A stretch of 64,000 bases of DNA from Minisyncoccota bacterium (lineage in GTDB: Bacteria; Patescibacteriota; Minisyncoccia; Phycocordibacterales; UBA9973), in assembly GCA_043718505.1 (NCBI GenBank), contig JAYSVN010000005.1, forward strand, positions 14 through 64,013, written 5' to 3'. The notes below the pieces were generated by a model that worked only from the letters and a program-made list of their open reading frames with translations, was not told where the DNA came from and did no database searches. The translations under genes and the position numbers were made by a program. This document shows, piece after piece, positions 24,225-25,391 of this stretch (the stretch's first letter is position 1; each line of letters starts with the position of its first letter).

Positions 24225-24330
24225 ATTGGGTGACCGTATTGCACAGCAAACGGTCACCCTACTTATCAAAATCATAATTCCGATTGTGATTTTGCAGGTA
24301 TATAAATGTTCATTCACACTAAAAACTATG
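24225..24330 (+). repeat. Leader module A: attGGGTGACCGT-N12-ACGGTCACCC hairpin, CAAAATCA-N12-TGATTTTG hairpin, GTTCATTCACAC box, then a 5-codon ORF
   Basis: Stems read directly (24228-24259 and 24267-24294). Box at 24308-24319. Confidence 0.5.
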
Positions 24331-24510
24331 GCACATGCAAAATAAACCCACACGTAAACAGTTAAGAGCACAAGCTAGGCAGATATTGAAGGAGAACGGA
24401 TACAACTCAGACGGCAGCCCTAAAGGCAGCATGTCGAGCAGCCAATATTTTTTTGAGAAAAATATTATAGGCACACCGATGGGAAACCGAATGCGGTGAT
24501 TTTCTTTTTT

Positions 24511-24607
24511 ATTGGGTGACCTATCGTCACCCTGATTTTTGAGAACTTGATTTCGATCGAGTTTTCAAAATGAAATTGTTCATTCACATCTAAAAATATA
24601 CATAATG
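24511..24607 (+). repeat. Leader module B: attGGGTGAC-CTATC-GTCACCC hairpin + TGATTTTT, TTTTGAGAAC-N14-GTTTTCAAAA hairpin (contains G.U), GTTCATTCACATCTAAAAATA box, ATG of ORF 24605
   Basis: Stems at 24514-24532 and 24537-24570. G.U at the stem centre means the pairing is only valid in the + strand RNA. Confidence 0.55.
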
Positions 24608-24976
24608 AAAACAAGAGAGAAGTTTAGTAAGGAGGAAGTGATTAACTTCATCAATCGTACAGCACCCAAGTTGGGTTGCGGTGACTTCACGTATTCTCCA
24701 AGTTTTCCTGAAGGGCATGATGATATTTGCCTGGTAACCCGTGCAGTTGAAAATGGTTACTCGTATGGCTACAGTATTATTTACCTGGTATGGAAAAACC
24801 TGAAAGGGGAGATGCAAAAGTATGAATTAGCGGATACACGAAGCACCAAAGATAACTTATATTACAAAAATCTGCGTGTCGAAGGTAGCAACATCAAATT
24901 CGACCTTGAAGTTTCCGGAACCTACAGCGGAAACCCAAGTAAAAAGGTAGTAAGTTTTGATATAAGTAAACTGTAA
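24605..24976 (+). CDS. Small hypothetical protein (123 aa) downstream of leader module B
   Basis: ORF with protein-like composition. No recognised domain. Confidence 0.45.
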   Translation: MKTREKFSKEEVINFINRTAPKLGCGDFTYSPSFPEGHDDICLVTRAVENGYSYGYSIIYLVWKNLKGEMQKYELADTRSTKDNLYYKNLRVEGSNIKFDLEVSGTYSGNPSKKVVSFDISKL

Positions 24977-25019
24977 AAAATTAATCACTCACACCTAAAC
25001 TAAAAAATAATTACACCGC

Positions 25020-25391
25020 ATGAGTTTAACAGTAGTGCTGGTGCCCGAAGACGTAGCAGAAAAACTGCTCCAAGAAAAAGATTATGAAGTCAAAGTTGAA
25101 GGCTGGTCTCGCAAGAGAAAGCTTCATCTGAGAGGACAACGTCTTATCTTGGAAGTCGCCATGAAAGACTGCATGTGTAGTACCTGTATCAGGCGTTTCG
25201 AATCTGTACTCTTTTCAATGAGAGACAGAAACGTTTCGTACGAAGCAGGATCTTGGGACGGAGATTGTTCGATTAAATTTCAGAATCCGGAAGGATTTGT
25301 AGAAGCTGAAATCTGCGATTTTCTTACTGAGCGAATAGGGCTGACGGTTTCGGGCATGAAAGAAGTCCAAACAGAAGAGAGCGAAGGATAG
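25020..25391 (+). CDS. Small hypothetical Cys-containing protein (123 aa)
   Basis: ORF preceded by TCACTCACACCTAAACTAAAAAATAATTACACCGC-ATG, sharing the TCAYTCACAYCTAAA box with modules A and B. Confidence 0.45.
   Translation: MSLTVVLVPEDVAEKLLQEKDYEVKVEGWSRKRKLHLRGQRLILEVAMKDCMCSTCIRRFESVLFSMRDRNVSYEAGSWDGDCSIKFQNPEGFVEAEICDFLTERIGLTVSGMKEVQTEESEG

Follow-up and report, generated by a model that had tools for sequence, protein, structure and literature searches.

A recurrent sequence box in a variable small-gene array of a Minisyncoccota bacterium as a candidate translation leader

In a stretch of 64,000 nucleotides of Minisyncoccota DNA, hereafter called the window, three small open reading frames near the Ro60 gene rsr are preceded by a similar sequence box, and we wanted to know what this box does. 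The first-pass annotation had read it as a shared promoter with a leaderless-type start, or as a dedicated regulator site uniting the small genes and rsr in a regulon. On balance, and with considerable reserve, the sequence leads us to favour another reading, in which each cistron of a polycistronic, processed array of small genes has the box as its translation leader. A switch tied to the neighbouring rsr it most likely is not. The features of the locus are collected in Table 1.

Table 1. Boxes, hairpin modules, genes and unit boundaries of the array (positions in the window).
Feature	Position	Strand	Remarks
Sigma-70-like promoter	21561-21589	+	TTGACA-17-TATACT; strong; 11/12 matches, with TG; candidate for the whole unit
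rsr-upstream module	21914-21976	+	H1 21914-21935, H2 21936-21976; z -4.1; covariance model 72 bits
rsr-upstream box, degenerate	21979-21995	+	GTTCTTTATATTTAAAA, i.e. GTTCTTT-ATAT-TTAAAA; module covariance model 72 bits
rsr	22055-23698	+	Ro60: TROVE and vWA domains (Pfam); within the array in this genome only
rsr-downstream module, boxless	23871-23954	+	H1 23871-23900, H2 23907-23954; inverted repeats I13, I9
Module A	24228-24300	+	H1 24228-24259, H2 24260-24300; z -6.5; 69.6 bits
Box A	24308-24325	+	GTTCATT-CACAC-TAAAAA = GTTCATTCACACTAAAAA; ends 9 nt before the ATG at 24335 (54-aa ORF)
54-aa gene	24335-24499	+	first small array gene, behind box A
Module B	24514-24569	+	H1 24514-24532, then TGATTTTT; H2 24538-24569; z -4.8; 71.8 bits
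Box B	24578-24596	+	GTTCATT-CACATC-TAAAAA = GTTCATTCACATCTAAAAA; 8-9 nt before the ATG at 24605
123-aa gene	24605-24976	+	no known family; 4 homolog clusters among 5.8 billion proteins
Box C	24983-25007	+	AATCACT-CACAC-CTAAACTAAAAAA = AATCACTCACACCTAAACTAAAAAA; diverged copy
Second 123-aa gene	25020-25391	+	73% identical to L005 639-1010
Module D	25496-25552	+	H1 25496-25514, H2 25519-25552; z -2.9; 63.5 bits
Box D, degenerate	25559-25575	+	GTGTAGAGTACCTAAAA, i.e. GTGTAGAGTAC-CTAAAA; 9 nt before the ATG at 25585 (95-aa gene)
95-aa gene	25585-25872	+	last gene of the array in the window, L001, L011 and L012
Strong intrinsic terminator	25890-25913	+	closes the array

The three boxes A, B and C are indeed present on the + strand. 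The string TCAYTCACAY has exactly three matches on both strands of the 64-kb window, where 0.70 are expected, and 3 of 100 shuffles reach this number; with one mismatch allowed, the count is at chance level (16 versus 15.2 expected). The copies are confined to a + strand segment of 685 nt, where each precedes an ATG by 15-25 nt, and we estimate that this clustering contributes an extra factor of about 1e-4 against chance. As an independent test, a weight matrix was trained solely on boxes from other genomes and 128,000 window positions were scored. Box B ranked first (20.3 bits) and box A second (19.4 bits); the best score in shuffled sequences averaged 14.0 bits, and one shuffle of 30 reached 19.4. 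Box C, at 10.3 bits, is not significant alone. It is orthologous to GTTCATTCGCACTTAAAAAA, located upstream of the same gene in L005, it lacks a preceding hairpin module, and its leader is predicted to be fully unpaired. Two degenerate copies had gone unnoticed in the first-pass annotation. Box D has kept the A-rich half and lost the GTTCAYT half, and in the rsr-upstream box the usual spacing of 9-10 nt to the start codon is absent.

The box is made up of two parts, a 5' part, GTTCAYT(CACA), which is array-specific, and a 3' part, (C)T(T)AAAA, which is found genome-wide. In seven loci, GTTCAYT precedes 18 of 34 array genes versus 1 of 91 other genes (Fisher 1.5e-11). The box is a shared and non-random cis-element of adjacent small genes, as had been proposed, and the statement that it is not seen upstream of other genes is borne out for this half. 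The core GTTC(A/T)YT plus TWAAA is kept at a fixed distance from the ATG in at least six other assemblies, where flanks and downstream genes differ. The CACAY insert is common to boxes A, B and C, and the boxes of L001 all carry TTCATTTAAAA. A dedicated trans-factor for the array-specific half is possible. No complementary partner of GUUCAYU was found within the window. Several candidate pairings of the box were rejected: neither the one with the start codon (UUCAU/AUGAA), nor the one with an upstream AAUGGAC, nor a local hairpin in unit B (AAUGAA/UUCAUU) is conserved across the modules. A T-loop mimic (GTTCAYT versus TTCRANY) was likewise discarded, with A58 unmatched. Scans of viral contigs with TTGTTCATTTAAAA and TGTTCATTCRCAYYTAAAA gave single chance matches, mostly within coding sequence, and no arrays, so that a phage origin is unsupported.

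For the 3' half, the claim of absence before other genes does not stand: in 10 of 60 window genes, three of which belong to the cluster, CT(T)AAA has its end 10-11 nt ahead of the start, and for CT(T)AAA(A) there is a sharp peak at 9-11 nt, made up of 9-10 of the 60 genes. Between positions -25 and -5 of the 56 non-cluster genes, the most enriched 5-mers are TAAAA, TTAAA and CTTAA, with TAAAA occurring in 14 genes (2.7 expected; p 2.6e-7). When T[TA]AAA is required to end 6-12 nt before the start, it is found for 19 of 34 array genes and 18 of 91 other genes. Shine-Dalgarno (SD)-like sequences (GGAG, GAGG or AGGA at -20 to -4) precede just 3 of the 60 window genes, and the distant SD-using relative L009 has AGGAGG in place of this lineage's box. 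Upstream of genes 10412 and 26460 (- strand), the A-rich motif is located downstream of TTGACT-N16-17-TAGAAT/TATAAT promoters and hence inside the leader. The motif is absent before the tightly packed window genes 6972, 59090, 60965 and 61344, so that an argument from motifs before internal operon genes does not apply. In GeneMarkS-2 group B genomes (Bacteroides, Flavobacterium), an A-rich non-SD motif is located about 9 nt from the start (PMC6028130), and by its composition and position the 3' half of the box resembles this ribosome site. At the sixth position it has A or C, where a -10 box has T. The leaderless start suggested previously is unlikely, since the A-rich element stops 9-14 nt short of the ATG and the invariant T that closes a -10 box is missing from it.

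The box terminates an intergenic module of about 90 nt that is composed of a GC hairpin (H1), a long AU-rich hairpin (H2), an A-rich spacer and the box itself. The two-hairpin element of about 60 nt preceding boxes A, B and D had been overlooked in the first-pass annotation. In the H2 alignment, 91% of the cells are paired, and sliding the partner lowers this to 32-46%; compensatory changes are seen in 11 of 16 pairs, and the covariation score is 0.559 versus 0.236 in shuffles, none of 500 of which reached it. The H2 cells contain 33 G.U versus 3 A.C, which, together with the covariation, indicates that H2 acts as sense RNA. H2 of module A also covaries with its L014 ortholog. Scored with a covariance model of the module, the + strand reached 64-72 bits and the - strand no more than 17 bits, with matches confined to arrays, and the boxless module downstream of rsr is a weak match (21.8 bits, E 0.014 on 7 kb). 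On this comparative evidence, the H1/H2 hairpins are conserved as a sense-strand RNA structure. The modules have z values of -2.9 to -6.5 and the leaders fold at about 0 kcal/mol; the stretch between box and AUG is G-poor and predicted to be unpaired. In units B and D, a T-run comes directly after H1, which was therefore listed as terminator-like.

With Rfam (gathering and E-value thresholds; window and related loci), no family was found for the box or the modules, the only matches being tRNAs and, in relatives, sub-threshold type III hammerheads. Twister, twister-sister, pistol, hatchet and HDV-like ribozymes were not detected in the window array (E<=10) or in L001 9000-13300 (E<=5). For hammerheads, Rfam gave no match in window 21000-26600 (E<=10), and the core pattern is absent from 23700-25900. 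The possibility that H1-CUGAUUU-H2-GAAA is a degenerate hammerhead was rejected: there is no model match and no stem III partner, and the motif is absent from the L001 modules.

Relatives carry the same boxes and a variable array between TrmB and RNase Y, and they lack rsr. Type III hammerheads (Rfam, E 1e-7 to 7e-5, with scores of 35-45 bits that lie below the gathering score of 48.5) are located 5-15 nt 5' of the box in L005, L004 and L010, and the hammerhead core (CUGANGA, GAAA, stems I-III) is present in L005 (542-596), L004 (three copies) and L001 (10646-10700). The position of the box directly downstream of hammerheads places it in transcribed RNA. Since cleavage by type III hammerheads takes place on their 5' side, ribozyme and box remain on the downstream mRNA, and hammerheads between small genes imply the processing of a long transcript into mRNAs of gene length. 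The junction upstream of the first 123-aa gene contains H1-H2 in the window, L001 and L005, and a hammerhead in L004; the one upstream of the second 123-aa gene contains a hammerhead in L005, H1-H2 in L014 and neither in the window. Judged by their positions, the two junction elements are interchangeable.

In L001, unrelated same-strand small ORFs are separated by near-identical repeats of about 100 nt. Its first array gene is preceded by TTGACA-17-TATATT about 45 nt 5' of the box (about 70 nt 5' of the ATG), followed by a hairpin and then the box. Its last module is located after the last gene, is boxless and is followed by a canonical terminator, which makes read-through likely. Array content differs between genomes, and in the one clear case of this small sample, L014 versus the window, the breakpoint falls at or after the box: in L014, unit A passes into the leader of the 25020-type gene precisely at GTTCATTCACAC|TTAAAA. 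A hammerhead immediately 5' of the box may likewise be present or absent between genomes. A metagenome-contig scan with the 95-aa family gave no relative, and a genome-contig scan with the 123-aa family led to no loci other than L008 (a Candidatus Moraniibacteriota MAG) and L009, both of them distant.

The gene behind box A is not the 5-codon ORF at 24328 that the first-pass annotation had listed as a regulated gene. Instead, there is a conserved 54-aa ORF, whose counterpart in the corresponding place of the L002/L001 array is a 55-aa ORF with 50% identity (E 2e-15); gene callers predict the 54-aa ORF on identical contigs. The AF2 model of the 24605 protein has a pLDDT of 88 and matches no PDB fold (best E 0.012, TM <=0.36). 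No similarity was detected between this protein and the 25020 protein, which are unrelated, and the array proteins match nothing in Pfam, PHROGs or PADLOC. In L010 and L014, more same-strand genes follow the 95-aa gene.

Concerning rsr, whose true start may be the ATG at 22094, all genes between the promoter and the terminator of Table 1 lie on one strand and rsr has its own module, and the small genes and rsr are probably expressed together in this genome. To this extent the proposed link with rsr is tenable. It is not conserved, since the boxes and arrays that relatives keep between TrmB and RNase Y have no rsr among them: tblastn with Rsr gave no match in L001-L014, though boxes and modules occur there. 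The rsr flanks are strongly structured (z -5.9 and -5.2) and contain one GNCGAAN0-1G each, a motif occurring 20 times on the window + strand; no Y RNA was found beside rsr with Rfam.

We propose that the box would be a single-stranded leader before each cistron of a hypervariable small-gene array, itself placed at what appears to be a fixed chromosomal site (TrmB ... RNase Y/ClpP) of a Moranbacteria-like CPR lineage. The common layout of the junctions is H1 (GC-rich), H2 (long, AU-rich), an A-rich spacer, GUUCAYU(CACA), (C)U(U)AAAA, about 9 nt and the AUG. The whole array would be read through as one RNA and cut between cistrons, either in cis by a hammerhead or by a host RNase at or near H1/H2, after which H1 would cap the 3' end of the upstream piece and H2 the 5' end of the downstream one. 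Loading of the 30S subunit on the open A/U/C-rich box would then need no SD pairing, and GUUCAYU may be a standby or enhancer segment or a putative binding site of an array-specific factor. The comparisons behind this reading cover only about seven genomes and about 20 boxes, and several of the L001 copies are near-identical.

It is unlikely, in our judgement, that each gene has its own weak promoter, in which the A-rich hexamer 5' of GTTC is the -10 box and GTTCAYT the discriminator or start-site region, located after a leaky terminator H1; a variant, from the first-pass annotation, takes TAAAA as the -10 box of a leaderless mRNA. The terminator-like H1 of units B and D, with TGATTTTT behind it, would fit separate transcription units and thus speaks against a leader, as do the weak -10-like hexamers (such as GAAAAT) that are often located just 5' of GTTC (TATAAAT in A, GAAATT in B, TAGAAAT in L014). 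In L001, moreover, TTGTGA-N16-17-TAAAAA-N8-9-ATG is readable as a leaderless promoter. However, boxes A, B and C have no promoter-like site in a consensus scan, and no -35/-10 pair is kept across the modules. The would-be -35 element (TTGTGA/AGTGA) falls on the basal helix of H2, in its covarying 3' strand, and the excess of G.U over A.C in H2 requires sense transcription. The string TAAAA(A/C) lacks the last T and ends 9-10 nt before the ATG, versus 6-7 nt for the TATAAT of this genome's leaderless-type genes. Finally, in relatives the box follows hammerheads, whose body stays on the downstream RNA, with no terminator between.

That GTTCAYT(CACA) is the putative site of a dedicated regulator of the small genes, and possibly of rsr, with a TrmB-family or RNA-binding protein as the candidate, seems to us quite unlikely. 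Such a site would agree with the confinement of GTTCAYT to arrays, with the concerted evolution of the box within a genome (CACAY in the window, TTCATTTAAAA throughout L001) and with the TrmB-family gene that flanks the array in the window (20190-20942), L001 and L011-L013. Against it, the box is neither palindromic nor repeated, unlike TrmB-type sites, and its distance from the ATG varies from 13 to 32 nt. Moreover, the only copy before rsr is degenerate and about 60 nt away from the start of the gene, and none of the relatives that keep the box has rsr.

Still less probable is a cassette junction, in which GTTCAYT would be the exchange point, like the G|TTRRRY core of integron attC, and H1-H2 the folded substrate. 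The repeats between the unrelated ORFs of L001 and the variable gene content are what such a system would leave, and so are the L014 joint and the presence or absence of hammerheads immediately 5' of the box. But no integrase or recombinase is encoded within about 10 kb in the window, L001 and L011, where Pfam found housekeeping genes only; the 5' ends of the modules lack an inverse core (AATGAAC), and there are two separate hairpins and not one R''-L''/L'-R' stem. The G.U-rich helices point to RNA and not to folded DNA, and ordinary homologous recombination also yields breakpoints at short direct repeats. Lastly, we regard as very improbable a functionless box inherited through local intergenic duplication, for which the similarity of units A and B (26 nt, 81%) and of B and D (a 62-nt repeat, 71%) and the modest excess of the exact 10-mer could be adduced, given that the core persists in other assemblies despite changed flanks and genes.

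Returning to the box as a leader in a processed array, a wider idea, which we put forward only tentatively, is that H1-H2-GUUCAYU is an undescribed intercistronic CPR RNA module, functionally interchangeable with type III hammerheads and delimiting mobile "RNA-punctuated" cassettes, Ro60 with its flanking structured RNAs being one of them. The module would then be a host-RNase processing or stabiliser site or, less likely, a new self-cleaving motif. In CPR/Patescibacteria, translation start and transcript organisation are little known, and we found nothing specific in the literature on SD usage or hammerheads in this group. The locus is a compact testable case, combining a genome-wide A-rich motif, an array-specific leader segment and structured modules where relatives have hammerheads. 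Should the modules turn out to be processing sites, ribozyme punctuation would have a protein-dependent counterpart in them, and gene callers could use them to locate where the many small "dark" ORFs of these genomes begin. Students of Ro60 should be cautious, in that the small genes beside rsr are array neighbours, which relatives carry without rsr.

The organisation of the locus can be compared with several known systems. Like integron cassette arrays, it has promoterless-looking, unrelated small ORFs on one strand, variable in content, with a short GTT... core just 5' of each and with structured repeats of about 60-140 nt homogenised within a genome. Unlike attC sites, it has no integrase and no inverse core, its two hairpins are independent and show G.U covariation of the RNA type, and GTTCAYT violates the R at positions 4 and 6 of the GTTRRRY core. 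Intercistronic hairpins serve as processing or stabiliser sites in other RNAs, such as the RNase III sites of the phage T7 early region and the 5'-terminal stem-loops that stabilise Bacillus mRNAs. The modules are like these in that long irregular helices are located between cistrons, with an open region for ribosome loading directly 3' of them; they differ in that H2, at 12-17 bp, does not reach the length of classical RNase III substrates, and cleavage here is putative.

In Salmonella and other bacteria, rsr-Y RNA (and rtcBA) operons are controlled by RtcR/sigma-54 (PMC4201824, PMC7790460). The Ro60 ortholog of the window is similarly flanked by strongly structured same-strand non-coding sequence, but the window contains no rtcR, rtcB, rtcA or Rfam Y RNA match, and the box genes of relatives occur without rsr. 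With the group B ribosome site, the 3' half shares its A-rich composition, its distance of about 9 nt from the start and its location in a genome where SD-like sites precede a few per cent of the genes; in this genome, too, the motif is located inside leaders, downstream of promoters. The differences are the consensus (C)T(T)AAAA, the CPR-type host, the coexistence with a leaderless-type class (TATAAT at 6-7 nt), the additional GTTCAYT segment, which has no counterpart, and the missing motif before tightly packed genes of the window. In bacterial and prophage DNA, clusters of hammerheads are known on either side of one gene or of a short block of genes (Perreault et al. 2011, PMC3088659). Unlike these clusters, the window junctions carry H1-H2 and no hammerhead, and they are located at a core chromosomal locus free of phage genes and integrase; like them, the arrays of L001, L004, L005, L009 and L010 have type III hammerheads between varying small genes.

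The three box sequences that the first-pass annotation described upstream of small genes are present (boxes A, B and C). When both strands of the 64-kb window were scanned, the motif TCAYTCACAY matched exactly three times (expected, 0.70), at 24310, 24580 and 24985, always on the + strand. Taken alone, this count is only modest evidence, because 3 of 100 shuffles also reach three copies and the number of matches with one mismatch is at chance level. Much more evidence is added by the clustering of the copies: one strand carries all three in a stretch of 685 nt, and an ATG follows each of them at 15-25 nt. 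A decisive, independent test came from a 20-position weight matrix built from 17 boxes, all of them from other genomes. Among all window positions, box B ranked first (20.3 bits) and box A second (19.4 bits), and box C scored 10.3 bits; shuffles gave a mean best score of 14.0 and a single top score of 19.4. A box-like leader, AAAAGTTCATAAACATAAACACTTAAAAC (17645-17664), precedes the arginase-family housekeeping gene 17687-18841; its score of 14.4 bits is comparable to the best scores of shuffles.

The box is composed of two halves with different distributions. It had been proposed to be special to small genes, which holds for the 5' half and fails for the 3' half. The 5' half GTTCAYT, followed in the window by CACAY, is restricted to the genes of the array, the same-strand run of small genes: in the window and six related loci it is found within 50 nt upstream of 18 of the 34 array genes versus 1 of 91 others (Fisher 1.5e-11). 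The 3' half, (C)T(T)AAAA, is used genome-wide: CT(T)AAA ends 10-11 nt upstream of the start in 10 of the 60 called window ORFs, with a sharply peaked distance histogram. At -25 to -5 of the 56 non-cluster genes, TAAAA, TTAAA, TAAAC and CTTAA are the top enriched 5-mers, TAAAA being present in 14 (2.7 expected, p 2.6e-7), and SD-like sequences precede only 3 of the 60 window genes. Two start classes can be distinguished by the motif and its distance from the ATG: TATAAT ends 6-7 nt and T(T)AAAA 9-10 nt ahead of it, and genes of the former class look leaderless. At genes 10412 and 26460 (minus strand), the A-rich motif is located downstream of near-consensus -35/-10 pairs, and therefore inside a short leader. 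Moreover, the last T of a -10 element is invariant, whereas the sixth base of the A-rich motif is A or C.

Box A belongs to a 54-aa ORF at 24335, which is 50% identical to an ORF of the related locus L002 (E 2e-15), and not to the 5-codon ORF initially assigned to it. The proteins encoded at 24605 and 25020 are unrelated to one another, and each is conserved in relatives. Among 5.8 billion proteins, only four homolog clusters were found for the 123-aa protein (24605-24976) and six for the 95-aa protein. The confidently predicted structure of the former (pLDDT 88) contains one helix and seven strands, and the model gave no significant PDB fold match. Homologous contigs, the nearest named genome being a Candidatus Moraniibacteriota MAG, keep the order TrmB-family regulator, variable array of small unannotated genes, RNase Y and ClpP; the array forms a hypervariable island whose site in the core genome is fixed. 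In the window, L001, L011 and L012 the array ends with the 95-aa gene, which is followed by further array genes in L010 and L014. Related arrays contain the box in the form AAAWWT-GTTCAYT-(0-6 nt)-T(T)AAAA-(8-10 nt)-ATG, with a GTTCAYT-to-ATG spacing of 13-32 nt across arrays and a constant spacing of the A-rich element. Boxes of the same genome are more alike than orthologous leaders between genomes (the CACAY insert in the window; TTCATTTAAAA throughout L001), and the box thus evolves in concert within genomes.

A larger module ends with the box. In units A, B and D, located ahead of array genes, the similarity extends beyond the box: H1, a GC-rich hairpin, is followed by the long AU-rich hairpin H2, a spacer rich in A, the box, about 9 nt and the ATG. 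H2 has 12-17 bp, including a basal helix of 4-5 bp (yCAyU/AGUGr). Module folding z-scores range from -2.9 to -6.5. From the box to the ATG, the sequence is predicted to lack pairing, and a folding energy of 0 kcal/mol was obtained for the box C leader. When 15 modules of 7 loci were aligned, 91% of the H2 cells were paired, versus 32-46% with the partner strand slid, and compensatory changes occurred in 11 of the 16 pairs. For covariation, the score was 0.559 versus 0.236 in shuffles, none of 500 of which reached it. Non-Watson-Crick cells comprise 33 G.U versus 3 A.C, and therefore the H2 helix is selected in the gene-strand RNA. Besides the four modules detected by the covariance model, there was a weak match at 23875-23974; the minus strand gave at most 17 bits, and no further matches were found in the 64 kb.

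Features of the window and of related loci from other assemblies
Feature	Sequence	Positions	Remarks
TrmB-family regulator	window	20190-20942	directly upstream of variable array
TrmB-family regulator	L001	8281-9039	directly upstream of variable array
TrmB-family regulator	L011	4337-5101	directly upstream of variable array
H1-H2 module	window	21909-22000; 24233-24326; 24506-24596; 25488-25579	+ strand; covariance model, 64-72 bits
Degenerate box GTTCTTTATATTTAAAA	window	21979-21995	in module upstream of rsr
TATAAT start class	window	genes 20190, 40631, 43047, 57850	examples; leaderless type
T(T)AAAA start class	window	genes 8454, 9184, 10412, 16911, 17687, 18966, 62289	examples
Type III hammerhead	L005	542-596	Rfam-scored
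Type III hammerhead	L004	872-937; 1394-1448; 3125-3179	Rfam-scored
Type III hammerhead	L001	10646-10700	Rfam-scored
Type III hammerhead	L009	~2985-3040; ~3715-3775	core-pattern match only
Type III hammerhead	L010	~5095-5150	core-pattern match only

Modules match on both sides of rsr (Ro60), and therefore rsr itself is module-flanked; the downstream module has no box. The box had also been suggested to place the small genes in a regulon co-located with rsr, but it does not mark an rsr regulon: tblastn found no rsr in any of the related loci. In the window genome, rsr looks like a further insert in the array. Its start (region 22029-22096) is ambiguous, since ATG 22055 has TTTAAAA only 5 nt before it and the in-frame ATG 22094 has ATAAAC at the usual 9 nt; the leader contains two very short upstream ORFs, with ATGs at 22029 and 22039. 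Between a near-consensus promoter (TTGACA-17-TATACT, 21561-21589) and the module upstream of rsr there are about 320 non-coding nt (21594-21915) with a folding z of -5.9 against shuffles, a closing stem of about 28 bp (about 21619-21750) and, at 21760, GCCGAACG, which agrees with the YrlA motif GNCGAAN0-1G. This region, for which Rfam gave no match, is a candidate Y-like RNA. The 530 nt from the rsr stop to unit A (23699-24228) are also highly structured (z -5.2), with GCCGAAG near the start (23706), a box-less H1-H2 module (23871-23954) and a putative 125-aa ORF (23821-24198); they may be a non-coding 'cassette' or a second Y-like RNA. Further downstream, a 21-nt inverted repeat with 81% complementarity (ATGCGGTGATTTTCTTTTTTA at 24491-24511 and TAAAAAATAATTACACCGCAT at 25001-25021) encloses unit B and the first 123-aa gene. 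Although it coincides with a cassette, it is probably due to chance. The ACACCGC-ATG upstream of the second 123-aa gene is kept in L005 and L014.

In relatives, type III hammerhead ribozymes are located at several junctions between array genes. Those scored with Rfam (E 1.6e-7 to 7e-5) have 35-45 bits, just under the gathering score of 48.5, so that standard annotation would miss them. None was found in the window. Hammerheads and H1-H2 replace one another: at the junction upstream of the 123-aa gene, L004 has a hammerhead where the window, L001 and L005 have H1-H2; at that upstream of the second 123-aa gene, L005 has a hammerhead, L014 has H1-H2, and the window lacks both. In L005, L004 and L010 the box is located 5-15 nt 3' of the hammerhead. 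Type III hammerheads cleave at their 5' side; therefore, the ribozyme body and the box stay on the downstream RNA, and the box is transcribed within a longer RNA.

The near-consensus promoter upstream of rsr and a strong terminator (25890-25913) enclose the whole same-strand unit. In L001, a strong promoter, TTGACA-17-TATATT, lies ahead of the first array gene, about 45 nt from the box and about 70 nt from the ATG, and a hairpin separates it from the box; the final module, located after the last gene and without a box, precedes a canonical terminator, which argues that H1-H2 does not itself end transcription. We lean towards a model in which the array would be transcribed through, and its cistrons separated at the junctions by a hammerhead in cis or by a host RNase at or near H1/H2. 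H1 would then cap the 3' end of the upstream cistron and H2 the 5' end of the downstream one, and ribosomes would load on the open, G-poor box without SD pairing. GUUCAYU may act as a standby or enhancer segment, bind an array-specific factor or mark a preferred point of recombination.

That each small gene has its own promoter is unlikely. H1 of units B and D looks terminator-like, and A-rich hexamers resembling a -10 element adjoin GTTC, but no -35/-10 pair shows conservation, the supposed -35 is a strand of the covarying RNA helix, the geometry is unlike that of the leaderless genes of this genome, and hammerheads directly precede the box. Array specificity, concerted evolution and the constant TrmB neighbour would fit a putative site for a dedicated regulator without a link to rsr, a reading to which we assign a low probability. 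Slightly less probable still is an integron-like recombination core, which would agree with the cassette-like variation of the arrays and with a hybrid in L014, where unit A is joined to a 25020-type leader between GTTCATTCACAC and TTAAAA; however, no integrase was found within about 10 kb, the inverse core is absent, the element comprises two hairpins rather than a single one, and its covariation is of the RNA type. Pure duplication without function is contradicted by conservation across assemblies and is very improbable.

A-rich start motifs and ribozyme-punctuated arrays are of kinds already known. The 3' half of the box matches the motif of GeneMarkS-2 group B, which is A-rich, non-SD and located about 9 nt ahead of the start codon (PMC6028130). 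Perreault et al. (PMC3088659) described single genes or short gene blocks flanked by hammerheads and inferred processing of long transcripts. The searchable literature appears to contain no description of the H1-H2-GTTCAYT module, of its interchange with hammerheads or of Ro60 placed inside such an array. Repeated structured leaders may be a general feature of such arrays, because L009, a more distant relative, has a two-hairpin leader of its own (CTCATCATaaaaaaATGATGrGCACATCwGCCTTTCGrGGCAA, 2505-2590 and 3785-3852), directly upstream of AGGAGG. This SD-using relative contains hammerheads and has AGGAGG at the position of the box in the lineage studied here.
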